Shown here piece by piece: positions 10,398-33,858 of a stretch of DNA of 64,000 nucleotides. The stretch's first letter is position 1; each line of letters begins with the position of its first letter. The notes beneath the pieces were generated by a model, which was given only the letters and a program-made list of their open reading frames with translations, was not told where the DNA came from and did not search any database. The translations under genes and the position numbers were made by a program. Source of the stretch: a bacterium (GTDB taxonomy: Bacteria; Patescibacteriota; Dojkabacteria; JAKAPS01); NCBI GenBank assembly GCA_021806925.1, contig JAKAPS010000001.1, positions 1,237 through 65,236 on the forward strand, in the 5' to 3' direction.

Positions 10398-11162
10398 ATG
10401 AATGATATAATTATTTCAGTTAATGATATAACCAAGAAGTACGGCAGTTTTACTGCTGTTAATGGTATATCATTTAACGTTAAAAGGGGAGAAATATTTG
10501 GAATTCTTGGACCAAATGGTGCAGGAAAAACATCCCTTTTAGAAATGATGGAAGGATTAAGGAGTATAACCGCAGGAGATGCATTAATAGATGGATTAAG
10601 TGTAAAACATAGTGTGAATAAAGTCAAAAGAATAATTGGAATACAACTTCAATCAACAGGGTTCTTTGAAGAACTAAATTTAATAGAACTTCTTAATCTT
10701 TACGCTGGACTATATGATGTAAAAATTAACCCAATGGAGTTGCTTCATGAGGTTGAGTTAGAAGATAAGGCTAAATCACAAGTCAGAAAATTATCTGGAG
10801 GACAACAACAAAGATTTGCAATATGCCTTTCTCTGGCAAATACTCCAAAGGTCATATTTCTTGACGAACCAACAACTGGTCTTGATCCACAAGCCAGAAG
10901 ACATGTGTGGGGAATAATAAAGAACATAAGAGAAAAAGGAATGACAATTATATTCACAACTCATTACATGGAAGAAGCTGAAAATCTTTGTGATAGAGTA
11001 ATGATTATGGATCATGGTGATGTAATAAAGACAGGCAAACCAGTAGAATTAATAGAAAATCTTATTAGTTCAGGATTTAAGAAAGAACAACCTGTTCTTT
11101 CTGCTAATTTGGAAGACGTATTCATATCACTTACAGGTCATAATATTAGAGAGGATATATAA
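10398..11162 (+). CDS. ABC transporter ATP-binding protein
   Basis: Walker A GPNGAGKTS, ABC signature LSGGQQQR, Walker B IFLDEPTTGLD and an H-loop. Confidence 0.9.
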   Translation: MNDIIISVNDITKKYGSFTAVNGISFNVKRGEIFGILGPNGAGKTSLLEMMEGLRSITAGDALIDGLSVKHSVNKVKRIIGIQLQSTGFFEELNLIELLNLYAGLYDVKINPMELLHEVELEDKAKSQVRKLSGGQQQRFAICLSLANTPKVIFLDEPTTGLDPQARRHVWGIIKNIREKGMTIIFTTHYMEEAENLCDRVMIMDHGDVIKTGKPVELIENLISSGFKKEQPVLSANLEDVFISLTGHNIREDI

Positions 11163-11164
11163 AA

Positions 11165-12265
11165 ATGCAAAGATTATTAATTCAATTCATATCACTTACA
11201 AGTGCATCACTGAAGATGTATTTTAGAAATAAAACAGCAGTGTTTTTCACAATGTTTTTTCCTCTAATATTTATAGGAATATTTGCTTTGATATCCAATA
11301 AACAATCAGCAAAGTTAAATATTGATGTTATTTATAATTCAAAATCACAAATTGAGAGTGAGTTTGTAAATGTACTAAAAAATTCAAACATATTTAATAT
11401 TACAGTATCAAATAATTACAACACATCATATACAAATCTTGTGAATAACAATAATGAAGATATATTACTTAATATAACTCAAAGCAATAATTCAAAAATT
11501 AACGTTCTTGCAATGTATGATCAACTAAATTCTGACTCTCCTCAAACAGGTATATCTATATTAAATAGCTTTGCAAATTCATTTAACAATACAGTATTTG
11601 AAGAAATAAATAGAACAACAATTCCTCAAACAGTAACTGTTAATACACAAAGCATACAGACAAAGAATCTTAAATACATTGATTTTATAATTCCAGGAAT
11701 TATGGGTTTCTCATTAATGCAGTTAGGGTTATTTAGTGTTGCATTTGCATTTACAACAATGAAGAAAACAGGTGCATTAAAAAGACTACATGCAACACCT
11801 GTTAATCTATATTTATTTATTATTGCTCAGTCAATATCAAGAATTATTGTAGGTTTTCTTCAAGAGCTTATTATTGTCTTGCTGGCTCTTGATTTTCTTG
11901 GATTCCATATGTATGGAAATATTTTTCTATATTTTCTTGTATTAATACTCGGTTCTATAGTTTTTATAGGAATTGGACTAGCAGTTGCTGGGTATGCTAA
12001 AGATGAAAATCAAGCAGCACCAATTGCTAACCTTATATCACTTCCTATGATGTTCTTTTCTGGAGTGTTTTTCTCTTCAAGTTTACTTCCTAGCTACATT
12101 AGAAATATAGTACAATTTTTACCTTTGACATTCCTTAACAATGCTCTTAGAGATATAGCAAATAAAGGGGCGACATTGGGTCAAATTAGAACTGATTTGC
12201 TTGGTTTACTTTGCTGGGGTGTTATTGCTATAGTTATAGCAGTAAGATTATTTAAATGGGAGTAA
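11165..12265 (+). CDS. ABC-2 family transporter permease
   Basis: Sits immediately downstream of the ABC ATPase. It has an N-terminal TM, a large external loop and a C-terminal TM bundle. Confidence 0.7.
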   Translation: MQRLLIQFISLTSASLKMYFRNKTAVFFTMFFPLIFIGIFALISNKQSAKLNIDVIYNSKSQIESEFVNVLKNSNIFNITVSNNYNTSYTNLVNNNNEDILLNITQSNNSKINVLAMYDQLNSDSPQTGISILNSFANSFNNTVFEEINRTTIPQTVTVNTQSIQTKNLKYIDFIIPGIMGFSLMQLGLFSVAFAFTTMKKTGALKRLHATPVNLYLFIIAQSISRIIVGFLQELIIVLLALDFLGFHMYGNIFLYFLVLILGSIVFIGIGLAVAGYAKDENQAAPIANLISLPMMFFSGVFFSSSLLPSYIRNIVQFLPLTFLNNALRDIANKGATLGQIRTDLLGLLCWGVIAIVIAVRLFKWE

Positions 12266-13887
12266 GTAAAAGCAAAGTAAAATCAACATTCGTATCTGTA
12301 AGATATGTATTATATATTTCTATTATTCTTGTATCCGCTGCGTTCATTCTCTTCCTTTTATTTTTTTACCTGAATGTAAAATCATTTGAATCTCAAACCA
12401 TACAAGAAGAGTTTCAATATTCAAATAGTTTGAGTAACGAACTAATGAACTACTTGGAGTATGAGTATCAATTACTTGAAATTGACTACGCTAACACCAA
12501 TATATCACCAAGCACATTAAGTAATTTCACATATATAACTAAATCTATTAATGGAAAAACAATATCATCAAATCAAAAGATACAACTATCTAACAACCAC
12601 TCAACTAAATATTTCTTTGACCCTAATACAAATTTACTATATATAACATACATTGCAAATTCTGGATATGAAACTGGAACTATATATGTACCAGGAAACC
12701 AGAAAATTTCATCAATTCTTGCTTCAAATAATTTCTATAACTATTTAATAGATAATAGCAATATCGTATACTCAAATACTGGTGCTACAAATGTATCTAT
12801 ATCGAAATTCAACTTAAACTACAATTCTACTGATATGGAGAGAATTGGAAATATTCATAGAGAAATAATGCTATTTAATCCAATTCAAAATGGATTACCC
12901 CTTGGTATACTAACATTTTCAAAACCATTAACATTCAGTGCTTTGGATTCCGTAAATTTATATTATACATATATAATAGTTATAGTATTCATATTATTCA
13001 TATCATTGATATTGATCTTTAATAATCTTGTTGAAATACCTTTGTCATATATCTTAAATGAGTTAGAGAAATATAAAAGAGGAGAAGAAGTATTTCAGGA
13101 TAAATCAGTAAAATTATCAGGATCGTTTGAAACTCTTTACATTGACATAACTTCATTTATAGATTCAATTACATCAGAAAAAAGAAAGGGTAAATTTGAA
13201 GATAAGGTTCAACAAGACTTTATACTTTTATCTGGTCACATGCTGAGAACTCCACTTGTAAGTATTAGAGGATACATGGATATGATTGAAGCACAATCAT
13301 CAAAAGATGAGCAAACCATTAAATTTATTGTCAAATTAAGAGAGAAAATATCGAATCTTTCTCAATCAATTGAGAATATCCTAACAATATCTAATTTTGA
13401 AAATAGCATAGTAAAAGCAAAGAAAGAAGTTATAACTCTTAAAGATATTATTAATGAGGTTGAGAAAAAATATTCAGAAAAGGCAAAACAGAAGAATATA
13501 AATTTTGTAATTAATACTGATAATATTGATGACATAAATATATTTTCATCAAAAGAAAATTTATTGTTAGCAATTGGAAATGTTGTAGATAATGCATTAA
13601 AATTCACTCCGCCTGAGGGAGTTGTAAAAATATATTTCAAAGTTGATGTTGATAAAGTTACAATATCGGTATCTGATACTGGTTCAGGAATAACAGAAGA
13701 AGAGAAAGATAAGTTATTTAAAAAATTTTCAAGACTTAGTGACTCACTTGAATACAGTGCAGATGGTCTTGGGTTAGGACTATATGCTGTTAAACTAATA
13801 TCTGATGCTGAAGGTGCAACAGTAAAGTTTGACTCAATAAAGGGTAGTGGAAGCACATTTAATATAACACTACCTATATATAGGTAA
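12256..13887 (+). CDS. Sensor histidine kinase (membrane, large extracytoplasmic domain)
   Basis: Two TM helices flank a periplasmic domain of about 200 aa. H-box SGHMLRTPL and a HATPase_c region (DNALKFT...SDTGSGIT...GLGLGLY) are present. Confidence 0.8.
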   Translation: MGVSKSKVKSTFVSVRYVLYISIILVSAAFILFLLFFYLNVKSFESQTIQEEFQYSNSLSNELMNYLEYEYQLLEIDYANTNISPSTLSNFTYITKSINGKTISSNQKIQLSNNHSTKYFFDPNTNLLYITYIANSGYETGTIYVPGNQKISSILASNNFYNYLIDNSNIVYSNTGATNVSISKFNLNYNSTDMERIGNIHREIMLFNPIQNGLPLGILTFSKPLTFSALDSVNLYYTYIIVIVFILFISLILIFNNLVEIPLSYILNELEKYKRGEEVFQDKSVKLSGSFETLYIDITSFIDSITSEKRKGKFEDKVQQDFILLSGHMLRTPLVSIRGYMDMIEAQSSKDEQTIKFIVKLREKISNLSQSIENILTISNFENSIVKAKKEVITLKDIINEVEKKYSEKAKQKNINFVINTDNIDDINIFSSKENLLLAIGNVVDNALKFTPPEGVVKIYFKVDVDKVTISVSDTGSGITEEEKDKLFKKFSRLSDSLEYSADGLGLGLYAVKLISDAEGATVKFDSIKGSGSTFNITLPIYR

Positions 13888-17460: not shown

Positions 17461-17679
17461 ATGATTGGATCATCAAATCTTAAAACAATCACAGATCTAA
17501 GGAAATTCACTCTAAATATTCTTAATACTGTTACAACAAACAGATCTCATATATACATATTATCAAGATCAAAGCCACTTGCAGTAATAATATCAATGGA
17601 GGAATACGGTAAATTATTGAAATATAAAAGAGAAGCTAAGCTATATAAAAAGAAACTCATTGCTCAAAAAGCATATTAA
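17461..17679 (+). CDS. Phd/YefM-family type II antitoxin (orphan)
   Basis: ITDLRKF...RSKPLAVIISMEEYGKLL matches the Phd/YefM fold signature. The ORF-track start (17383) overlaps the tRNA, so the internal Met at 17461 is used instead. No toxin ORF follows. Confidence 0.55.
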   Translation: MIGSSNLKTITDLRKFTLNILNTVTTNRSHIYILSRSKPLAVIISMEEYGKLLKYKREAKLYKKKLIAQKAY

Positions 17680-18709
17680 CTGTTGTTCCGCCAATCTCAT
17701 TAGCTTTAATATCAAGTTTACCATTATGTTCTATTACATATTTCCTTACAATTGAAAGTCCAATACCAAAAGGAATATCAGAAGAAATTCCTATACCAGT
17801 ATCTGAAATAGAAACGCTAAGATATCTATTTTTCCTATTGCAACATTCTATGATTTCTGTTTGTATATCAATCTTTCCATTTACAGTATATTTTATAGAA
17901 TTATACAGAACATTAATAATACATTCCTCAAACTTTGTCTTATCTAATAATACATACTTATCCCCCTTATGAGAAAAACTAATTGTTATATTGTTTTGCC
18001 TGAGCAAAATTTTTGATTCATTTATTATAGATTCAACTGATGAACAAATAGAAAAACTTTCTAATTCAATTAATCCGTTTTTACCAATGTTCTTAAATAT
18101 CCTTATAGCCCGATTAACAGCATTTCTAGCATATCCAATATATTCGTTCTCTTGAGTTTGAAGTGATATTGAGTCCTTTATTATTGATAACTGTGTATTT
18201 ATATCATGTGCAAACATTTTGTACTCCATATTTTCAGCACTTAATGAAATATATTTTGAGAAGTTATAGGCAATAATAGACAAGAAGTCTATATTAATAT
18301 TTTCTTTTTCAAGAGCAATTAACAATACACATTGATTGTCTCCATAAACCTTAACAGGAATACTAACAACAGATGCAACATTAAATACTTTTTGTATAAT
18401 CTTTGCACTATTCTTCATTTGACTAACAGTGAAATCTTCACATTTTCTACTTTGGAATATCTTATTACTTAAATATGATTTGCTTATATTATTGTCATCA
18501 TTCATCATATATTTTATATCCTTCAATTTAACTGGCAAATATTCAAGCGATGATTCTACAATTTTTTTCTTACTTGCACATAGTGGTGATAAGTAATTCG
18601 AGTTGTTAATAATATTGTTTAGTACTGGACAAAACAACAAAACACCTTTAATAAATGGTATATCATCGAACAAATCAACATACATCTGGTAAATATCCTC
18701 TATGTTCAT
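17657..18709 (-). CDS. Cytoplasmic sensor histidine kinase
   Basis: H-box FAHDINTQL and HATPase_c motifs (LYNSIKYT, SDTGIGIS, GIGLSIV). No TM helices. Confidence 0.7.
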   Translation of the reverse strand: MNIEDIYQMYVDLFDDIPFIKGVLLFCPVLNNIINNSNYLSPLCASKKKIVESSLEYLPVKLKDIKYMMNDDNNISKSYLSNKIFQSRKCEDFTVSQMKNSAKIIQKVFNVASVVSIPVKVYGDNQCVLLIALEKENINIDFLSIIAYNFSKYISLSAENMEYKMFAHDINTQLSIIKDSISLQTQENEYIGYARNAVNRAIRIFKNIGKNGLIELESFSICSSVESIINESKILLRQNNITISFSHKGDKYVLLDKTKFEECIINVLYNSIKYTVNGKIDIQTEIIECCNRKNRYLSVSISDTGIGISSDIPFGIGLSIVRKYVIEHNGKLDIKANEIGGTTVNMLFEQ

Positions 18710-18732
18710 TTTACAAGATAAGAGTAGATGTT

Positions 18733-19155
18733 TTATTTAAGAATTTCCAATATTTTTGATAATATTTGAACTGGAGTATAGTCACTTTTCTCAAGATAAT
18801 AGTCAGATTCTAAAACACCAGCATTATACTCTCCATTTTCAAAAACATTAGTAAGTACAACAGTTATTATTTTTATTGAATTAGTGTTTATATATGTAAG
18901 TAATTCGACTCCTGATGACACTGGCAATAGAAGGTCAATAATTGCTAAATCGATCTTCTGATTTTGCAATTTATTAATTGCACTTTTAACATCATGAGCA
19001 TTAAAGACATTAAATCCAGCGGACGTCAATACATTATAGTACATCCTAGATACAGGAATCTCATCTTCAAGAAGCAAGATACTTTTTAAATGATTTTTTC
19101 TAAATTCTAAAATATCCATAGCTAATACTAAATACTTTTTTAGCATGTAAATCAA
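18733..19155 (-). CDS. Response regulator receiver (single-domain, CheY-like)
   Basis: LLLEDE acidic pocket, a phospho-acceptor Asp in LAIIDLLLP, and the 140-aa length. Confidence 0.75.
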   Translation of the reverse strand: MIYMLKKYLVLAMDILEFRKNHLKSILLLEDEIPVSRMYYNVLTSAGFNVFNAHDVKSAINKLQNQKIDLAIIDLLLPVSSGVELLTYINTNSIKIITVVLTNVFENGEYNAGVLESDYYLEKSDYTPVQILSKILEILK

Positions 19156-20435: not shown

Positions 20436-21413
20436 TTGAAAAACACAAAAACACTAATTATAAAAATTATATCAGTCACTTTGTTGTTGATTTTAGTATA
20501 TTTTATATCGAACCCACATATATTTAACAATAATAATATAGTTTCAAGAAAAACAAATAATGTTACAGTAGAAGCATATACTCCATTACAAAATTTTGAT
20601 ATTCAAACATGGAATAAAGAAGCATTTCTAACAAGCACTGGGTCCTTTACAATTGAAATACCCTACGATACTACAGTTACATTAAATAATGGAATATATA
20701 CATTAAGTGCTAAAGAGTATGGAACTGTAACAATATCTTCTACTATTGCAGTTGATGGTACAAATTCATTGCCATATGACGGATATATAAACAATATATT
20801 CAGAGCAAAGACAACCTATCTTAAGAACTCTAATGAAAGTATACAGATATATACAAAGAACAGTGTTATTTCATTTAACTTTTCTTCAAATGTTGAAAAC
20901 TTCGTGAAGGAATTTCTTACCACATTTATATATACAGAAGATTCAACTACAAATCCAATAGAAACGATTCTCTTTAAACATAATTTTGAGTCCAACAATA
21001 CATATACAATATTTTACCCTAGTAACTATTTCTTAGACCAGAAATATACAACTGGATATAGCCAATCCTGCCCAAACGAATCACTTGTAAAGCTCATAAA
21101 TTCAAACATGCAGAATATAATCACAATTGACTTTAATCCATGTGCAACCACACAATATGTAGTTACAGATTCAGTTATAAAGTATAACTCCATTGATATT
21201 TTTAAAGTGAGTAATAATGAATATTGTGCAATGAGCATGTCATCTCCACAAATGTCATATATTTCTTTAATTCCAGCAAGAAATTTGAACTTTGGATTTA
21301 ACTATACAGAATTCTTTGGTATTACACCAATCAAATTATGTCTATCATCACAAAATCCGTCGCAATATATACATGACTTAGAATACATTGGAACAAACAT
21401 GGATATATACTAA
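20436..21413 (+). CDS. Secreted or membrane-anchored hypothetical protein
   Basis: N-terminal signal/anchor helix followed by a hydrophilic Asn/Ser/Thr-rich body. Confidence 0.45.
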   Translation: MKNTKTLIIKIISVTLLLILVYFISNPHIFNNNNIVSRKTNNVTVEAYTPLQNFDIQTWNKEAFLTSTGSFTIEIPYDTTVTLNNGIYTLSAKEYGTVTISSTIAVDGTNSLPYDGYINNIFRAKTTYLKNSNESIQIYTKNSVISFNFSSNVENFVKEFLTTFIYTEDSTTNPIETILFKHNFESNNTYTIFYPSNYFLDQKYTTGYSQSCPNESLVKLINSNMQNIITIDFNPCATTQYVVTDSVIKYNSIDIFKVSNNEYCAMSMSSPQMSYISLIPARNLNFGFNYTEFFGITPIKLCLSSQNPSQYIHDLEYIGTNMDIY

Positions 21414-21458: not shown

Positions 21459-23480
21459 ATGAAAGGGAAAATCTTGCTATTGTTTTTTATTCCCTTACTG
21501 TCTATTCTCTATTTTTTTAGACCATTTACAAATGTATACGGTGCTACAGTTTGCTCTAATACACCAAATGAATTAAATATAAGCAACCAATTTTTACAAA
21601 ATAACGTTTATGCAGGAGTTCCATTTCCTCTTGTTATTTATGCATGTAATTCAAGTGGTCAAATAGATTCTACATTTAATGGAAATGTTCAATTGACAGA
21701 TAGTACAACTACTCTCTACCCATCTAGTACAACTAATTTTGTCGATGGTGTATGGTCTGGGCAAGTTACAATAACTAGAGCAATTAATTCTGATCAAATA
21801 ACTGCATACAGTTCTCTTTATGGAAACGGTATATCATCATCATTTAATGTATTACCTTCAGAAAATGGAATAATTGAAACAATAATACAGGGTTCAAATC
21901 AATCTGGGGTAGTAGGAAGCAATCTTCCACAGGCATTAAGTGTTACAACAACTGACCAATTCGGGAATATAGTCTCAGGCGTTGGCGTCACATTTACAAT
22001 TGCTCCTCCACCTAGTGGTGCTACAGGACAAAGCCTTTCAAACTATAGTGCAATTACTAATTCCAGTGGTTCTGCATCAACAGTGATGACATTAGGTACG
22101 AAAGAAGGAATATACATTGTTACCGTTCAAGTCTCAACTGGATCTTCAAAAACAAGCTCACAATATTATGAGTATGCTAGTAGCGGATCACTTGCAGTGT
22201 TAAATATATCTCCAGCAAGTGCTATTGTTCCTCAAGGAGGAGTTATTAATTTTCAAGCAAGCGGACTTGATAAATATGGTAATCCAGTAACAATATCTTC
22301 ACCTGTTTGGTCAATATCTAATGGTGGAGGTACAATCGATCAAAATGGAAATTTTACTGCAGGACAAACAACTGGCATGTACTATAACACAGTTTCTGCT
22401 GCAATCGGAGGTATAGGAACTACAGCAACAGTTAATATAATTTCAGCACAAAATGGTTCAGGGAGTGGAACAGGAGCTACATCAACACCAACTCCATCTC
22501 CAACTCCTACTCCAGACTATGTAACTGTTACACCAACTCCAACACCAACTCCTGATTATGTCACATTAACACCTACTCCATCACCAGATCCTATCGATCA
22601 TGTGCTTATAAATCCAAATCCTGTAACCGTTTCTCAAGGTGAATCAGTGTCTATTACTGCAACTGCGTATGATGCAAATAATAATCCATTGAATGGAACA
22701 TTTAATTGGGTTATATCAACTGGACTTGGAACACTTAGTTCAAATTATGGATCAAGTGTTACTTTGAATGCTGGTAATACACCTGGAAATGGTACAATAT
22801 CAGTTTCTGCTCTTAATTCAACAGGATCAAAAAGTGATACTGTAAATGTAACAATAATTCCTAGCCCGCTCGCACAAAAATTACTTAATGATAATATTGG
22901 AGGAGGACACTTCTATATAAAAAACATAGGGAATCAGACTACAAACACTCCATTTCTTGTAATAGTTATGGCAGAAGATAACAACAATAATATAATTAAG
23001 AATTTTAATAGTCCTATTGTAATTGATGATACTACGCATACAATAACACCTGGTAGCGGAACTAATTTCATAAACGGAATATGGTCTGGAAACGAAGTTA
23101 TCACAACTCCACAGAATAATGATGTTGTATCTGTTTCTGGCGGTGGTATAACTGGAACAAGTAATGAGTTCAATGTTACTGGTAAATCACCTCCAAATAT
23201 ATTTTCAACACTATCAAGCAAAATATCAAGTGTTATTGTACAAGCAAATAGTGGAACAAATTCTAAATTTGATTCAAGAATAATTAGTGCTGGATTAATA
23301 TCTGGTCTTGGACTTCTAGGTAGCGCACTAAGTATTGGACTAATGTCTTCAAAGGGCTTAGAGGCAATTGGAAGAAACCCCTATGCAAGAGGGAAGATAC
23401 AAATCTCAATGTTAATATCAACAGTGGTATGTATCGGAATATCTATTGCAGGGATTGTACTGTCTATAGTAATAAAGTGA
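21459..23480 (+). CDS. Large secreted Ig-like (Big) domain protein with a Thr/Pro linker and a C-terminal ATP synthase c-subunit-like transmembrane hairpin
   Basis: Signal peptide, then repeated beta-rich segments resembling bacterial Ig-like domains. A TPTPSPTPTPDYVTVTPTPTPTPDYVTLTPTPSPDP linker follows. The C-terminal 65 aa (GLISGLGLLGSALSIGLMSSKGLEAIGRNPYARGKIQISMLISTVVCIGISIAGIVLSIV) align with F-type AtpE (GxGxGxG helix, ARQP-like loop, second helix). Confidence 0.55.
   Translation: MKGKILLLFFIPLLSILYFFRPFTNVYGATVCSNTPNELNISNQFLQNNVYAGVPFPLVIYACNSSGQIDSTFNGNVQLTDSTTTLYPSSTTNFVDGVWSGQVTITRAINSDQITAYSSLYGNGISSSFNVLPSENGIIETIIQGSNQSGVVGSNLPQALSVTTTDQFGNIVSGVGVTFTIAPPPSGATGQSLSNYSAITNSSGSASTVMTLGTKEGIYIVTVQVSTGSSKTSSQYYEYASSGSLAVLNISPASAIVPQGGVINFQASGLDKYGNPVTISSPVWSISNGGGTIDQNGNFTAGQTTGMYYNTVSAAIGGIGTTATVNIISAQNGSGSGTGATSTPTPSPTPTPDYVTVTPTPTPTPDYVTLTPTPSPDPIDHVLINPNPVTVSQGESVSITATAYDANNNPLNGTFNWVISTGLGTLSSNYGSSVTLNAGNTPGNGTISVSALNSTGSKSDTVNVTIIPSPLAQKLLNDNIGGGHFYIKNIGNQTTNTPFLVIVMAEDNNNNIIKNFNSPIVIDDTTHTITPGSGTNFINGIWSGNEVITTPQNNDVVSVSGGGITGTSNEFNVTGKSPPNIFSTLSSKISSVIVQANSGTNSKFDSRIISAGLISGLGLLGSALSIGLMSSKGLEAIGRNPYARGKIQISMLISTVVCIGISIAGIVLSIVIK
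22486..22590 (+). repeat. Imperfect tandem repeat DNA encoding the TPTPTPDYVT(V/L)TPTP linker
   Basis: ACTCCAACTCC...GACTATGTAACTGTTACACC units are visible in the sequence. Confidence 0.5.
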
Positions 23481-23672: not shown

Positions 23673-23715
23673 GATTCGTCTACCCCAAATCTCCGATTTT
23701 GACAATTATCGGAGA
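23673..23715. repeat. 43-bp direct repeat, copy 1, containing an 8-bp palindrome (TCTCCGAT-N10-ATCGGAGA)
   Basis: GATTCGTCTACCCCAAATCTCCGATTTTGACAATTATCGGAGA. It matches copy 2 at 41 of 43 positions. Confidence 0.8.
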
Positions 23716-23734
23716 TCTGTGTTAATATTTACAT

Positions 23735-24982
23735 ATGGATGAAACTTTAGCTATACAAAATCCATGGTGGGAAGGAAGGCCATTGAAAAAATCAGTAGAA
23801 AGGAAAGAAGCACTATATGCCCTTAAACAAAGAGTAAAAAATAATAGAGTTTGTATGCTACTCGGTGGAAGGAGAGTTGGTAAAACGACCCTTATACATC
23901 AATACATTGGCGAATTATTGAATACTGGTGTTGAACCAAAAAATATATGCTATATTCTTCTTGATTCTAATGCATTCGAGAAGATATCAATATTTGAACT
24001 AATAAGAAAATACCGACAAATACACAACTTAAAAAGAGATGAGAATGTTTATTTATTTCTTGATGAAATTCAATATAAGGATAATTGGGAGCAATATATC
24101 AAAAATATTTATGATACTGAACCAAATATAAATGTTATGTTATCTGGATCAGCAAGTTTTAAAATTCATACTAAAACCTCATTTTTAACTGGACGATTTT
24201 CAATTCTTTATCTTTATCCCTTGTCATTTAAAGAATTTCTTCAATTTAAAAACATACAAATCTCCCTATCTGAAAAGTATATATATGAAAATGAGTTAAA
24301 TGAATATCTTCTAAAAGGAGGTTATCCTGAATATCTTTTGACTGAAGATTATCAATACTTTCCAAATCTGGTTGACAGTATAATCTATAAGGATTTTGTC
24401 GAATATTTCAATATAAAGAATCTAAACATAGTAAAAGATTTACTTAAGCTTATTGCTGATAGAACTGGATCTCATACGAGTCTTTCAAAATTAGGAAAAA
24501 TATTATCAATAGCCAAGGAAACAGTAAGAGATTATGTCTTTGCACTAAAGGAAACATTTACTATTTATGAATTACAAAGATATGCTACATCAAGAAATGA
24601 AAGGATTTACTTTCCCAAAAAATATTATATAAATGATAATGGTTTATTATTTAACTTGAGCGGTAAGTTTAATAAAGGGCAAGTTGCAGAGCAAACACTT
24701 TTTGATTTCTTATATAAAAAGTATAATGAATCATTGTACTTTTATTATTACGATGGTATAGAGATAGATTTTCTTATTAAGGACGCTGATGGAATTCAGT
24801 TAATTGAATCTAAATATATTAATGATGTAGAAGAATTCGATTCGAAATTACTTGTTAAAGCTATGGAGACATTGAAAGTTAGTAAGGCTGTTGTAATAAC
24901 AGAATCTCTTGAAAATACAATAGAATTTAGTAATAAGTCTATAGAATATATTCCCCTATGGAAATATATTCTTTCTCTGTAA
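23735..24982 (+). CDS. AAA+ ATPase of the AAA_14/DUF4143 family
   Basis: Walker A GGRRVGKTTL, Walker B LFLDEIQ and the characteristic C-terminal DUF4143-like region. Confidence 0.8.
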   Translation: MDETLAIQNPWWEGRPLKKSVERKEALYALKQRVKNNRVCMLLGGRRVGKTTLIHQYIGELLNTGVEPKNICYILLDSNAFEKISIFELIRKYRQIHNLKRDENVYLFLDEIQYKDNWEQYIKNIYDTEPNINVMLSGSASFKIHTKTSFLTGRFSILYLYPLSFKEFLQFKNIQISLSEKYIYENELNEYLLKGGYPEYLLTEDYQYFPNLVDSIIYKDFVEYFNIKNLNIVKDLLKLIADRTGSHTSLSKLGKILSIAKETVRDYVFALKETFTIYELQRYATSRNERIYFPKKYYINDNGLLFNLSGKFNKGQVAEQTLFDFLYKKYNESLYFYYYDGIEIDFLIKDADGIQLIESKYINDVEEFDSKLLVKAMETLKVSKAVVITESLENTIEFSNKSIEYIPLWKYILSL

Positions 24983-25008
24983 ACTATACAGAAACGTATC
25001 TGACAAAA

Positions 25009-25051
25009 GATTCGTCTACCCTCAATCTCCGATTTTGACAATTATCGGAGA
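25009..25051. repeat. 43-bp direct repeat, copy 2, with the same internal palindrome
   Basis: GATTCGTCTACCCTCAATCTCCGATTTTGACAATTATCGGAGA. With copy 1 it brackets the AAA ATPase gene. Confidence 0.8.
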
Positions 25052-25664: not shown

Positions 25665-26165
25665 ATGAACAGTATATACGATAAATTAAATGAAAAGATA
25701 TTCACAAAAAATGAGCTTGAAAATCTTGTCATTGATATTGAAAAATTAATAAAAAAATTAGATCAAAAATATACTGAAGAAGAGTTAAAGACAATCATAA
25801 ATGAAACAATAAGACAAAAGAAATTTGCTAATATATTTCTTGCAAGTATAAAGGTCAAATCTGGAATGACACCTGAAAAGATGCAGGATCTTGATAAGAA
25901 GCTTCATGATTTACCAAATACGAGAAAATCAGTCTCAATAATGACTGCAATTCCTATTTTAAATGAAGATATGGAATTTTTTGCTCAAATGATTCAAGAG
26001 AAAGATAGTTCTCCAATACTAATTAATTATAGTGTAGATTCATCATTAATAGGAGGTATTAAAGTAAAAGCACAGAAATACATATATGATTTATCTTTGA
26101 AAACGCATTTGGAGAAATATAAAGTGGAATGGTTGAAATTAATAAAACGACATAATGAATCATGA
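25665..26165 (+). CDS. atpH: F0F1 ATP synthase subunit delta (OSCP)
   Basis: 166 aa, C-terminal GGIKVKAQKYIYDLSLK typical of delta, and operon position. Confidence 0.7.
   Translation: MNSIYDKLNEKIFTKNELENLVIDIEKLIKKLDQKYTEEELKTIINETIRQKKFANIFLASIKVKSGMTPEKMQDLDKKLHDLPNTRKSVSIMTAIPILNEDMEFFAQMIQEKDSSPILINYSVDSSLIGGIKVKAQKYIYDLSLKTHLEKYKVEWLKLIKRHNES

Positions 26166-27785: not shown

Positions 27786-27802
<17 letters not shown>
26162..27802 (+). CDS. atpA: F0F1 ATP synthase subunit alpha
   Basis: Walker A GDRKSGKTT plus extensive alpha-subunit motifs. It carries an acidic C-terminal extension. Confidence 0.9.
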
Positions 27803-30162
<2,360 letters not shown>

Positions 30163-30480: not shown

Positions 30481-30879
30481 TTATCTTATTCTCCTCTTTC
30501 TTTCATGTGAGCTATATTTCAAATTCACTGCAATGTAATTAATTATGATTAATAAAAATATACCAGTAGACAGTATAATATATGAGTATCTTGAAAAAAG
30601 TAAAAGAATATCTATATATAGTAGATTGAATAATATGTAATATATTGTTTTCTCTACATTAAAAAATATGTATGCAAATAGAAGAAATAATGCTACATTA
30701 AGAATAAATAACGCTATTGATATATATATGTAGTTATACATTCCAGTATTCGTGATAGGTGAAAACAAGATTATAAATACAATCTCTAAACATAAAAAAA
30801 GTATTGAGAAAGATAAGTAAATATTTCTAAAAGATATATTCCTAATACCTCTTAATTTATTGAATACCATACTTTTCAA
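30481..30879 (-). CDS. Small polytopic membrane protein
   Basis: 132 aa, 3-4 TM helices, last gene of the ATP-grasp operon. Confidence 0.35.
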   Translation of the reverse strand: MKSMVFNKLRGIRNISFRNIYLSFSILFLCLEIVFIILFSPITNTGMYNYIYISIALFILNVALFLLFAYIFFNVEKTIYYILFNLLYIDILLLFSRYSYIILSTGIFLLIIINYIAVNLKYSSHERKRRIR

Positions 30880-31750
30880 TTAATGATGAGACAAATATCT
30901 TTGCAACATTAACATTAGTTACTCTTTCAAATCTTTTAAACATTGGAATTGTATTACACTCCAGCATATATGGCTTTCCATCCTTCATTATCATATCAAT
31001 TCCTGCAAAGAATACATTGAGACTGCTGGCAATATTAATTGCCATATTTATCATATTATCATCTGGAAAATATTGATTAACAATTGAAGAAGATCTTCTT
31101 GTGTGAAAATCATCACTATCTTTAGATTCATTCTTTATTGCACCAATAAATCTATTATTTATAACAAGTAGTCTGTAATCAACACCACCTGGTACATACT
31201 CTTCTACCTGGAACACCTTATTTTTTCTTATATCCTGTTTAAGATACATAAATATTTCCTCTAGGTCATTCAACTTATATACTTCCTTAGCCCTTGATGA
31301 AGGCGATCCTTTTAATATATTAGGAAATTCTATACCTGCATTCTCTAACCTTTGTAATGAAACATTACTGCCCATACCTAAAAACGTTGTATCAAGCAAA
31401 TTTATATTCTTATTAGAGCTGCAACATAACATATAGTCACTGAATTTTGTACCAGAATTGAGAAGACTCACATCTGATATAACAATTCTATTTCCTAGTA
31501 ATTTCAAAGCTTCTACAATATATTTTGCATTCTCTCCACCAACCCTAACTAAATACACATCGAAACTAAGAATATCCCTACTTTCAATACATGTATCATC
31601 TTTAAATATTCCAATTTCCCCATTGATTATCTTTATAAACAGTGAGGATACATTGAGTCTTTCTATAGTAATATTGTTGTAAAAAGAGAATTCATCAACT
31701 ATTTTATCTGTTTCATAACTATATTTGTTTGTTATTATTGCTATCTTCAT
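30857..31750 (-). CDS. RimK-like ATP-grasp ligase (alpha-L-glutamate ligase family)
   Basis: N-terminal MKIAIITNKYS (compare RimK MKIAILS), QVEEYVPGGVDYRLLVINNRFIGAIKNESKDSDDFHTRRSS and MLECNTIPMF, all collinear with RimK. Confidence 0.7.
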   Translation of the reverse strand: MKIAIITNKYSYETDKIVDEFSFYNNITIERLNVSSLFIKIINGEIGIFKDDTCIESRDILSFDVYLVRVGGENAKYIVEALKLLGNRIVISDVSLLNSGTKFSDYMLCCSSNKNINLLDTTFLGMGSNVSLQRLENAGIEFPNILKGSPSSRAKEVYKLNDLEEIFMYLKQDIRKNKVFQVEEYVPGGVDYRLLVINNRFIGAIKNESKDSDDFHTRRSSSIVNQYFPDDNMINMAINIASSLNVFFAGIDMIMKDGKPYMLECNTIPMFKRFERVTNVNVAKIFVSSLIEKYGIQ

Positions 31751-31795
31751 TTATATAAATTCTATCACTTCTATTGTTTATATGACTTCCATTCC

Positions 31796-33211
31796 TTATA
31801 TTTTCTTTTCAACATCAACTAGAAAATCATTTAAATCACGCTCCCCTATAATACATTGGAATTTCAATTCTTCTCTACCTATAACATTTACAATTGTCTT
31901 CTTTTTTACATTACCGATCTTTATTGTTACCTCGAATCTTGGTCTGATACTAGTTCCGTTTCCATTATTAACCCTTGCAATTCCTCTATAATTAGCAAAA
32001 TCAAGTATAGATTCCAAGTGATATGACTCAATATTCTTAGATTCATGTTTTTGAGTTTTATAGTACTCCATGAATTCATCAAAGGAGTTTAATAATCCAA
32101 ACTCTCTTGCTAATGAAGAATCTATTGAGGTCGAATCTGCGCCTGTATCAACCTTTGCTAGTACAGTCAAATTCTTCTTCCTTACTTCAACATTCATATT
32201 AACATATCTTCCTATTACTGTCTTTCCAGTTATCTCTTCTATCTCTTCCTCAATCTCACCACCAAATAAGTCTTTTGCCAGTTTAATAGAATGCTTTATA
32301 GATTTAAATTTTAATTTTCTAACTCTTTCTAGCCTTTCTTTCAAACTATCATTATTTGCTATTTGAATTCCAAGTCCTGGTCTGGCATTAATTTCAAGAA
32401 TAGTAGGGCCATGGTCTCTGCAAAGAGCAATATCAACACCAGCAAGACCTAATCCAGATGCTATTTGAGCTTTTGTGCTTATCTCCAGAATCTGATCCCA
32501 GTATGGCACTCTGAATCCTACAATTTTAGACTTTGTATCTGGATGAATTTCTATTGGCTTGTTAAAATAAACACCACCAGTTGTTACACCAGATCCAATA
32601 TCAATGCCCACACCTATAGCTCCAATTGTAATATTAGCTTTTCCGCTTGATGCTACTGTTGGGAGTCTCATCATTGCCATTACAGGTATTTTATTAAATA
32701 CAATTACCCTTACATCGGGAATGCCTTTATATGTTAATAATTTAAATTCTTTTAGCAACTTCAGCCTCTCCTCAAAAAATGCCTTATCCTTTGTTCCACC
32801 CAATGAATATTTGTTATCCAGTATGTCAATGATATGCTTTTCTAAATCACTTTGATATATTTTTACACCATTTTGCTTAACCCATACTCTGTTTCCCTCT
32901 TTACTATGAAGTTTATCCTCACCATACACTACAATTATACCCCCTCCTGCATATCCTTTATTTGGTTTTAATACAAACGACTCTGGTAATTTACTCCAGT
33001 CAAAGCTTTCAATATCTTCCTTCTTTCTTATAACTCCTAAGGTTTTAGCTATTGGTAGTTTATTTTTCTTAAAAATTCTTTTTGCAAATAATTTATTGTC
33101 AGCTATTGCTCTTGAGTCTTTCAAGTTATACTTAAGAGTATACATTAAGTTTCTCTCATTTCTTCCTAGCATCCTATCCTGATTAACAAAGAATTTTAGA
33201 ATTTCATTCAT
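31796..33211 (-). CDS. Fusion of an ATP-grasp (RimK-related) domain with a C-terminal retropepsin-like (RimB / PF05618-type) aspartic protease domain
   Basis: ATP-grasp region with FVLKPNKGYAGGGIIVV, VMAMMRLPTVASSGKAN and ILEINARPGLGIQ. The C-terminus carries VLAKVDTGADSTSI (D-T-G-A aspartyl protease signature). Confidence 0.6.
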   Translation of the reverse strand: MNEILKFFVNQDRMLGRNERNLMYTLKYNLKDSRAIADNKLFAKRIFKKNKLPIAKTLGVIRKKEDIESFDWSKLPESFVLKPNKGYAGGGIIVVYGEDKLHSKEGNRVWVKQNGVKIYQSDLEKHIIDILDNKYSLGGTKDKAFFEERLKLLKEFKLLTYKGIPDVRVIVFNKIPVMAMMRLPTVASSGKANITIGAIGVGIDIGSGVTTGGVYFNKPIEIHPDTKSKIVGFRVPYWDQILEISTKAQIASGLGLAGVDIALCRDHGPTILEINARPGLGIQIANNDSLKERLERVRKLKFKSIKHSIKLAKDLFGGEIEEEIEEITGKTVIGRYVNMNVEVRKKNLTVLAKVDTGADSTSIDSSLAREFGLLNSFDEFMEYYKTQKHESKNIESYHLESILDFANYRGIARVNNGNGTSIRPRFEVTIKIGNVKKKTIVNVIGREELKFQCIIGERDLNDFLVDVEKKI

Positions 33212-33858
33212 TCTTTATCCATATCATTAATTACAGATCTGAATCTGATCATTTCATTAAATCGCAGATGCTTCCATCTTGAAAAAGCAATTGTTATGAA
33301 AATAAATAAAATATCTATTTCAGGATATCTCAGTAGGAACCATTGAGGTATAAAAAGAACAACTATATATGCAAGTATTGAAAGGATTAATGTATTAAAA
33401 AACATCAAAAAAGCAACTTTATTACCAGTTGATTTAAACATTGAAGTTATAAATATCTCAGAAATGGATATATATATAACCATTTCTATTGGTGAAATTG
33501 ATGATATATTAACCAATTTGAAAAAGAACATGAAATATATAAGAAAAATGACACTAATCAAACTTACTATTACAGCTATTCTTGGTAGATAATGTAAATT
33601 GAATGATTTTGTATATGTTTTAAGAAAGAATGAAATTAAATACACAAAAATTAAAAACAAGCTACCCTCAATTCCTCCACTCCCGTTTAAAAATGCAAAT
33701 ACAATAAGCATAGGTGTCTGAAAACCATAGGATTTGACTCCAACAACATTTCTTCCCATTGCAATAATTGAAGAAATAACAGGTATTAGTAGTAGATAAT
33801 AAAAAAGAGTTGGATTGGACACAAAAGCAGTTTGTATAAAACTTTCCATTTTTATCAA
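33208..33858 (-). CDS. Polytopic (about 6-7 TM) membrane protein, candidate partner of the ATP-grasp/protease pair
   Basis: 216 aa. It overlaps the downstream gene by 4 nt, which indicates translational coupling. Confidence 0.45.
   Translation of the reverse strand: MIKMESFIQTAFVSNPTLFYYLLLIPVISSIIAMGRNVVGVKSYGFQTPMLIVFAFLNGSGGIEGSLFLIFVYLISFFLKTYTKSFNLHYLPRIAVIVSLISVIFLIYFMFFFKLVNISSISPIEMVIYISISEIFITSMFKSTGNKVAFLMFFNTLILSILAYIVVLFIPQWFLLRYPEIDILFIFITIAFSRWKHLRFNEMIRFRSVINDMDKE

Follow-up and report, generated by a model that had tools for sequence, protein, structure and literature searches.

In the 64,000-nucleotide stretch of contig JAKAPS010000001.1 analysed here (the window), which comes from a dojkabacterium of the Patescibacteriota or candidate phyla radiation (CPR), a single open reading frame (ORF) of 673 codons encodes a secreted immunoglobulin (Ig)-like protein that ends in the transmembrane hairpin of an F-type ATPase c subunit without its ion-binding carboxylate. 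The gene, here called c*, precedes a set of genes for F1 and peripheral-stalk subunits (Table 1), and we consider it probable, though with real reservations, that it encodes the rotor-ring subunit of a paralogous CPR F-type ATPase in which ATP hydrolysis by F1 would turn, or exert torque on, a ring of c* whose ectodomains stand outside the cell.

The initial annotation of this stretch, made without database searches, took the C-terminal hairpin for a homologue of AtpE, and profile searches bear this out. Residues 609–672 match the Pfam profile ATP-synt_C (PF00137) from end to end (positions 1–60 of 60) with 30.6 bits, above the curated cut-off of 24, and the C-terminal 81 residues alone reach 36.8 bits (E 4.8e-9). 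PDB sequences were searched with the single window sequence as well as with the family profile, and F-type c subunits alone were retrieved (best E 1e-9), the profile giving 39 such matches out of 39. The essential acidic position was also correctly read as lost: the residue aligned with the ion-binding Glu of the Spirulina c15 subunit (2wie) is Ile659, directly after Cys658, and helix 2 of the window protein contains no Asp or Glu. In the set of the 80 best loci described below, an acidic residue in helix 2 was present in none of the 24 fusion hairpins versus all 56 canonical CPR c subunits, which carry a helix-2 Glu in the consensus ...GRNPEAAxKIQTNMILGIAFAEAIAIYALV.... Among 27 diverse fusion hairpins, ~30–50% identical elsewhere, the sole invariant block consists of A68, G70, R71, N72, P73 and A75 (A-x-G-R-N-P-x-A); it includes the counterpart of the R-Q/N-P loop with which c rings contact F1's gamma and epsilon subunits. 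Set against the c-subunit family, the window protein has the Pfam hairpin profile and the R-Q/N-P loop, lacks the helix-2 Asp/Glu and the stand-alone size of ~70–100 residues, and scores far below the cut-offs of the NCBIfam c-subunit equivalog models (best NF005363, 32.9–38.3 bits against 71). In view of its missing carboxylate, its large size and its low equivalog scores, c* is, to judge from its sequence, not a functional member of that family.

Such a gene could in principle be the product of a frameshift, an assembly error or a degenerating duplicate, or belong to the crippled sole ATP synthase of the organism, and there is some ground for the suspicion: a single assembly of the window region was examined, canonical atpB and atpE were not found in the window itself, and the gene call in one NCBI record (L087, GCA_003526405.1, 5485–5850) shortens an orthologue to a 121-residue ATP-synt_C protein. 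We nevertheless regard this explanation as highly improbable. The DNA of L087 is identical to that of L086, a 513-kb CPR2 scaffold, and holds the intact fusion as a 664-residue ORF (L086, 3856–5850). In the last 130 codons of the window ORF the first in-frame ATG, GTG or TTG does not come until codon 629, which is already within helix 1, and the intact frame recurs in more than 25 independent Patescibacteria genomes and metagenomes at 30–50% identity; these two results rule out a frameshift or assembly error and agree with what had been claimed, namely that the fusion is genuine and that no separate atpE start exists. The fusion-class beta subunit falls into at least 120 distinct clusters at 90% identity, the best 120 of them all 65–77% identical to the window's, catalytic motifs are kept, and relatives possess canonical operons besides the fusion-class one. 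The possibility that TGA is a sense codon extending the ORF was also ruled out: of the 58 well-formed ORFs in the window, which is 29% G+C, 14 end with TGA; the code is therefore the standard one, and the stop codon at 23478–23480 is genuine.

Homologues of the fusion are numerous. A HMMER search with the C-terminal 91 residues against 1.84 billion representative proteins gave 217 matches, many of them proteins of 186–2672 residues with the hairpin at the extreme C-terminus. The orthologues P0002–P0009 (P numbers denote proteins, L numbers loci) keep the window's architecture; nine orthologous proteins, 33–48% identical and sharing the whole architecture, have ...GLEAIGRNP[FYML]A[KR]xK... near the C-terminus and, after it, a last helix devoid of Asp and Glu. 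Scanning one genome per species (GTDB representatives) for the hairpin motif yielded 325 relatives, the best 51% identical, of which the best 80 were kept. By record label these 80 loci are largely CPR (Berkelbacteria, Saccharibacteria, Pacebacteria, Woesebacteria, Microgenomates, CPR3 and others). Twenty-four hold a fusion, 22 of 168–818 residues and two giants of 2036 and 2589 residues (the L009 and L017 proteins are shortened by a contig end or gene call), and 56 hold an ordinary c subunit of 47–313 residues, most of 70–97. About 35 of the 80 records, including L010, L011, L017, L020–L024, L034, L046, L052 and L060, are labelled "uncultured Pseudomonadales" or "Gammaproteobacteria" despite typical CPR genes, one of them being the isolate HK-STAS-PATE-16; these taxonomic labels look unreliable. 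A profile search with the hairpin alignment against a 5.8-billion-protein set, in which the word pre-filter favours short proteins, brought up no new architectures; its matches were for the most part canonical c subunits and pieces from the C-terminus of fusions.

As the initial annotation proposed, the gene stands where atpE would be expected, upstream of atpFHAGDC: b, delta, alpha, gamma, beta and epsilon follow it, after the insertion of an AAA_14/DUF4143 ATPase gene that is all that separates the fusion gene from b (atpF) in the window. In L002, L003, L004, L006 and L086 the fusion gene directly abuts b, and the order fusion-b-delta-alpha-gamma-beta-epsilon is found in L002–L004, L006, most of the 22 genome loci and L086. 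It is kept in most fusion loci down to ~30% identity, the exceptions being L020 and L021, which have gamma, beta and epsilon on the upstream side of the fusion gene; L009, L016 and L023 are truncated by a contig end. In 24 of the 26 relatives' loci whose fusion-family gene clusters with that of the window, a dedicated b and delta stand beside it. The window b alone has no Pfam match, and its assignment comes from a comparison of the fusion-class b family with the canonical CPR b family (hhalign, 98.3% probability, E 1.4e-14).

What the initial annotation missed is that the adjacent atpFHAGDC genes belong, as sequence comparison indicates, to a paralogous clade and not to the housekeeping operon. 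Relatives' subunits from fusion-class loci are 49–66% (alpha) and 61–76% (beta) identical to the window's, whereas those encoded next to ordinary c genes are 37–47% (alpha), 46–52% (beta) and ~20% (gamma) identical; the window gamma shares 40–60% identity with gammas of the fusion class and ~20% with their canonical CPR counterparts. In a midpoint-rooted neighbour-joining tree, 61 betas fall into two reciprocally monophyletic groups, one of 23 fusion-class and one of 38 canonical sequences; the median identity is 69% among fusion-class betas and 51% from one class to the other. The two classes also differ in the a subunit. In canonical loci a multi-transmembrane gene of 245–350 codons always precedes c, and one of these was verified as Pfam ATP-synt_A (161 bits). 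A hidden Markov model of the a subunit, built from 43 CPR canonical-locus sequences, gave 51 matches in canonical loci and none (E > 0.3) among ORFs of at least 50 residues in the window or within ±10 kb in 27 fusion-class loci. A Pfam scan of 10 multi-transmembrane and small two-transmembrane window ORFs found neither an a subunit nor a second c subunit, so that the absence of both from the window, noted initially, holds up, and neighbour clustering revealed no further partner, membrane protein or other, conserved in all fusion-class loci beyond the seven genes. The gene just upstream of c* (20436–21413) was considered as a conserved partner or replacement for a and rejected: it belongs to no Pfam family and is absent from other loci, with just a weak 36-residue match to the gene upstream of the L002 fusion.

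Relatives supply the housekeeping enzyme. Both operons occur in the metagenome-assembled genome SRP239054_co1_52 (fusion, L046; canonical a-c-...-beta, L079), where a binning error is possible, and in L054 and L064 a fusion-class F1 lies ~5 kb upstream of a canonical atpB-atpE pair, in each case on a single contig. Because its beta belongs to a separate clade, no a subunit was found and a canonical operon coexists in relatives, the window operon is best described as a paralogue of the housekeeping ATP synthase. It had been suggested at the outset that a canonical atpB-atpE pair elsewhere in the genome, together with a non-significant profile match, would reduce the hairpin to a coincidental anchor. 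This test proved misleading: the relatives named above carry such a pair, and it would not mean coincidence because the profile match is significant.

The residues required for catalysis have been retained. The window alpha has GDRKSGKT and the SVSRIG Arg finger, the window beta aligns over its full length with Caldalkalibacillus F1 beta, and across the fusion class 22 of 23 betas have Walker A and all 23 have GERTREG, while the Arg finger is present in all 26 alphas. Epsilon is reduced: in the operons in which blastp (E-value cut-off 0.01) found one, it has 78–114 residues in the fusion class versus 100–154 in canonical operons (18 of 19 at 136–154). The C-terminal helical domain of epsilon inhibits ATP hydrolysis in bacterial F1. 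Fusion-class alphas (window residues ~497–546; L002, L006, L013, L014, L069) bear a C-terminal tail of 40–190 residues that is acidic or rich in Pro, Glu and Lys; canonical CPR alphas are without such an acidic or low-complexity tail.

From these features we propose that c* would assemble into a ring beneath gamma and epsilon, docked through its GRNP loops. The alpha3beta3 hexamer would hydrolyse ATP, and gamma-epsilon would turn the ring, or apply torque to it, against a b2-delta stator. Because it has neither the carboxylate nor an a-subunit channel, the complex would move no ions and make no ATP, and it would run in the hydrolysis direction. Because each ring subunit continues outside the membrane as an Ig-like arm, the energy output would be mechanical work on a crown of such arms at the cell surface, which may serve adhesion, host interaction or manipulation, or movement of episymbiotic cells. 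We infer ring formation, docking to the co-encoded F1, the direction of hydrolysis, rotation and the biological role from the gene sequences. The peripheral stalk, whose sole role known to us is resistance to torque, has been retained, and this speaks for real torque generation rather than for a static scaffold.

The extracellular placement of the arms is predicted from the architecture of the fusion protein. Pfam detects weak Ig-like matches (Big_1, Invasin_D3, PKD_6) in its body and ATP-synt_C at its C-terminus. An AlphaFold2 (AF2) monomer model built on a 9-sequence alignment (mean predicted local distance difference test score, pLDDT, 72.7) contains five Ig-like domains at residues ~35–135, 138–241, 245–328, 380–467 and 483–575, and a hairpin in which helix 1 (603–636) and helix 2 (641–672 of 673) are joined by the loop. 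The N-terminal hydrophobic leader has its equivalent in all orthologues and would be cleaved after ...TNVYG; a segment equivalent to the short helix at 583–596 is kept within subfamilies. The cleavable leader, the abundance of Lys and Arg in the loop (SKGLEAIGRNPYARGK) and what is known of c-subunit topology together point to a cytoplasmic loop and an ectodomain of ~570 residues outside the cell. Foldseek searches with the full-length model retrieved generic tandem Ig-like arrays only, with TM-scores of 0.13–0.25, the top matches being the Gram-positive S-layer proteins EA1, SbsC, Sap and SbsB, followed by complement MG domains.

Membrane glycosyltransferases of the PMT_2/TMEM260-like (protein O-mannosyltransferase) type adjoin ten fusion-class operons and lie inside an eleventh, L088, between beta and epsilon (L006 16854–19247, L088 11557–13941, L064 4632–6692, L010 5015–7027, L052 789–5360 and others). 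None was found beside purely canonical atp loci or in the window. Their presence beside fusion-class operons hints that the Ig-like or Pro/Thr-rich ectodomain may be O-glycosylated.

Several points weigh against the proposed rotary machine. The weakest part of the model is the stator: without an a subunit, nothing known keeps b2-delta beside the ring, anchors it or accounts for resistance to torque. In the AF2 monomer model the hairpin has a low pLDDT of 52–67. Rotation might also be impossible for ectodomains that are embedded in a wall or S-layer. Finally, a second subfamily of carboxylate-less hairpins (...GRNPYARGKI...FIKFF) ends giant surface proteins of 1386–2672 residues that do not adjoin F1 genes, and the hairpin can thus also occur as, or resemble, a plain anchor. 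Members of this subfamily are L066 (2462–10231, CPR3), L032 (15–6125, Saccharibacteria), P0045, P0052, P0076, P0080, P0088 and P0120. The L066 giant contains NHL repeats and beta-propeller domains (Pfam) and adjoins a 2408-residue Kelch/fn3 protein and a MacB-type ATP-binding cassette (ABC) transporter; both the L066 and the L032 giants sit among other surface-protein and ABC-transporter genes, and neither locus has F1 genes within 10 kb. In the giants the hairpin may act as a separate anchor, or it may be a cargo of the same ring.

These giants, at 2036–2672 residues and with NHL or beta-propeller domains, are an argument for another explanation, in which the c-derived hairpin does no more than tether a surface or S-layer-like Ig protein, the F1 paralogue acts independently, and the gene order is a relic of a duplicated atp operon. 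Such an explanation would also account for the S-layer proteins at the head of the Foldseek matches, generic and low-scoring though these are, and for L088, in which alpha, gamma, beta and epsilon occur without adjoining fusion, b or delta genes. We think it unlikely. An anchor needs hydrophobic helices only, yet the invariant part of the hairpin is its cytoplasmic AxGRNPxA loop; the relatives' loci keep b and delta beside the fusion almost without exception, in an order that has mostly survived extensive sequence divergence; and the F1 paralogue would be left without a membrane partner, yet it retains the membrane-anchored b and delta. The initial annotation had offered a choice between a non-translocating Fo and a hairpin recruited as membrane anchor or rotor-tethered surface module. 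A non-translocating Fo and a rotor-tethered module both fit our results, whereas a coincidental transmembrane anchor fits poorly, because the loop is the most conserved part and b and delta are retained; the choice has been narrowed but not proven.

A further alternative is that one or a few copies of c* enter the canonical, proton-driven c ring, so that the surface protein rides on the housekeeping rotor. There is a precedent in the c1 subunit of Acetobacterium woodii, a natural F-type c hairpin without the ion-binding carboxylate (PDB 4bem), whose chain J ranks second among the PDB matches of our family profile, and the A. woodii ring that contains this carboxylate-free hairpin still turns. 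Canonical a and c subunits are encoded in the same genome in relatives, and c* has the EAIGRNP loop and the helix-1 motif G-x-G-x-x-G in common with canonical CPR c subunits. However, c* co-evolves with its own full complement of b, delta, alpha, gamma, beta and epsilon, which a hybrid ring would make superfluous; the private epsilon is without the regulatory C-terminal domain; and no second a gene accompanies the operon. We therefore hold this alternative to be quite unlikely. A. woodii c1 is a duplicated hairpin with one functional site that sits in a ring with normal c2/c3 subunits and works with an a subunit in a Na+-translocating enzyme, and it has no ectodomain, unlike c*.

Compared with the canonical F1Fo enzyme (atpIBEFHAGDC, including that of CPR), the paralogue has b, delta, alpha, gamma, beta and epsilon in the same order, with the R-N/Q-P loop, the glycine packing motif and the catalytic residues intact. 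It differs in having neither an a subunit (window and 27 loci) nor an ion-binding carboxylate, in the ~600-residue extracellular extension of c*, in an epsilon without C-terminal domain, in the acidic tail of alpha and in the separate clade of its F1. N-ATPases are likewise encoded by a second, laterally transferred F-type operon beside the housekeeping one, but they keep an a subunit and an ion-binding c, pump ions and have another gene order (Dibrova et al. 2010, PMC2881411). The CPR operon lacks both of these subunits and is for that reason not an N-ATPase.

The closest known systems are the F1-like X0 ATPases of mycoplasmas. They are encoded in clusters of seven genes, which specify alpha-, beta-, gamma- and epsilon-like subunits together with a "Protein 1" with 12 transmembrane helices, a small cytoplasmic "Protein 2" and a "Protein 5", which has a signal peptide, a large ectodomain and, at its extreme C-terminus, two transmembrane helices with a short loop (PMC3369863, PMC12994834). 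The clusters coexist with genuine F1Fo, and their products have been proposed to pass force derived from ATP hydrolysis through the membrane to surface proteins. M. mobile glides by means of the Type 2 enzyme, its G1-ATPase, and the MIB-MIP system of antibody cleavage depends on Type 3 (PMC3369863, PMC12994834). As in CPR, where this is seen in relatives, an extra F1-type motor stands beside a genuine F1Fo, neither system has an a subunit, and the host is genome-reduced and host-dependent; the signal-like N-terminus, ectodomain and two C-terminal transmembrane helices of c* resemble Protein 5, by description only. The CPR system is nevertheless not a member of this family. It keeps b and delta, its two-helix hairpin is detectably a c subunit, its gene order is the classical E-F-H-A-G-D-C, no counterpart of the 12-helix Protein 1 or the small Protein 2 is conserved across fusion-class loci, and the window beta matches ordinary F1 beta with 502 bits, much more closely than it matches G1 beta (355 bits).

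The AAA_14/DUF4143 gene (23735–24982) looks like an inserted cassette that is no part of the ATPase machine. It is flanked by 43-nucleotide direct repeats (23673–23715 and 25009–25051), 95% identical, of which there are just two copies in the window and 0 expected by chance; each copy contains an internal hairpin, TCTCCGAT-N10-ATCGGAGA. In L002 a homologue of this gene lies downstream of epsilon instead, and in L010 a gene for a 520-residue protein with signal-peptidase S26 and lamin-tail domains (11141–12703) lies between the fusion gene and b, a further case of insertion at the junction interrupted in the window. One sub-lineage has a pair of divergently transcribed genes immediately upstream of the fusion (in L010, 7707–8309 and 7024–7704, minus strand), encoding a ~180-residue cytoplasmic protein (15 loci) and a ~225-residue protein with one N-terminal transmembrane helix (11 loci). 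Neither belongs to a Pfam family, and the window has no copy of the pair, which may represent accessory factors peculiar to the lineage or no more than conserved synteny. Directly after epsilon in the window, on the minus strand (30857–33858), is a three-gene module of RimK-like ATP-grasp, ATPgrasp_ST and 7TM_transglut genes that is unrelated to the ATPase, and a histidine-kinase/response-regulator pair lies upstream of c* (17657–19155, minus strand).

Table 1. Positions in the window of the c* gene, the parts of its product, the inserted cassette and the F1 and stalk genes
Feature	Position	Strand	Description and basis
c* fusion gene, 673 aa	21459..23480	+	Signal peptide, Ig-like ectodomain, carboxylate-less c-subunit hairpin
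Predicted Sec-type signal peptide, residues 1-28 (...TNVYG/ATV)	21459..21542	+	Hydrophobic N-terminus; AF2 helix 4-18
Ectodomain, five beta-sandwich (Ig-like) domains	21561..23183	+	AF2, pLDDT mostly 70-90; Pfam
Pro/Thr-rich disordered linker, residues 331-374	22449..22580	+	Sequence; pLDDT ~35
Short helix just outside the membrane, residues 583-596, before the hairpin	23205..23246	+	AF2, low confidence
c-subunit-like transmembrane hairpin	23265..23474	+	Pfam ATP-synt_C, PDB c-subunit alignments, AF2 helices
Cytoplasmic GRNP loop, G638-P641	23370..23381	+	Counterpart of the c-subunit R-Q/N-P loop
Cys658-Ile659, Ile659 at the ion-binding Glu/Asp position	23430..23435	+	Alignment to 2wie, 7wem and 22vl c subunits
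Inserted cassette with AAA_14/DUF4143 ATPase gene	23673..25051	+	Pfam; 43-nt direct repeats
b-type peripheral-stalk subunit, 167 aa	25156..25659	+	One N-terminal transmembrane helix and long helix; hhalign
delta (OSCP)	25665..26165	+	Pfam OSCP, E 7e-11
alpha, 546 aa	26162..27802	+	~50-aa acidic C-terminal tail; Pfam ATP-synt_ab_N, ATP-synt_ab, ATP-synt_ab_C
gamma	27786..28745	+	Pfam ATP-synt
beta (catalytic)	28759..30162	+	502 bits to Caldalkalibacillus F1 beta; GGAGVGKT and GERTREG intact
epsilon, 85 aa	30163..30420	+	Beta-sandwich domain only; Pfam ATP-synt_DE_N at residues 7-83, nothing else

No description of a c*-type ATPase in CPR was found in the literature searched, including the text of PMC11665869, and reviews, PMC11665869 among them, take the CPR F-type enzyme for an ordinary ATP synthase, possibly run in reverse. 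Members of the family are annotated automatically as "F-type H+-transporting ATPase subunit c", as "hypothetical protein" or as partial c subunits, and P0059, P0178 and P0043 are C-terminal stubs of fusions entered under "hypothetical protein". Shortened gene calls may be the reason that the family went unnoticed. With the fusion annotated as "ATP synthase subunit c" or cut short, metabolic reconstructions can count this operon as an ordinary ATP synthase.

F-type ATPases are ion-coupled machines. The CPR paralogue appears to be a widespread and conserved version in which the ion path has been discarded, while the motor, the stalks and the ring subunit have been kept and the ring subunit joined to a surface protein, and this would imply that the rotor is used for mechanical work outside the cell. 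In its fullest form, which we offer as a tentative and rather doubtful extension, F1 would spin a ring of 8–15 c* subunits whose ~570-residue, possibly glycosylated arms form a rotating adhesin crown, drill or winch; the giant NHL proteins would be alternative ring cargoes, and the machine would be an intermediate that explains the mycoplasma F1-like X0 ATPases, with Protein 5 as a derivative of c. If this inside-out rotary reading were true, the machine would be the first among F-type motors to deliver its output as torque to a structure outside the cell. On the strength of its sequences, the system would be a conserved variant of the F-type or F1-like rotary ATPases whose structure spells out how F1 might be coupled to the outside, and it furnishes a hypothesis for the F1-like X0 ATPases, namely that F1 is coupled to the surface through a c-derived hairpin. 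For the Patescibacteria, most of which are uncultivated, it represents a candidate host-interaction machine.

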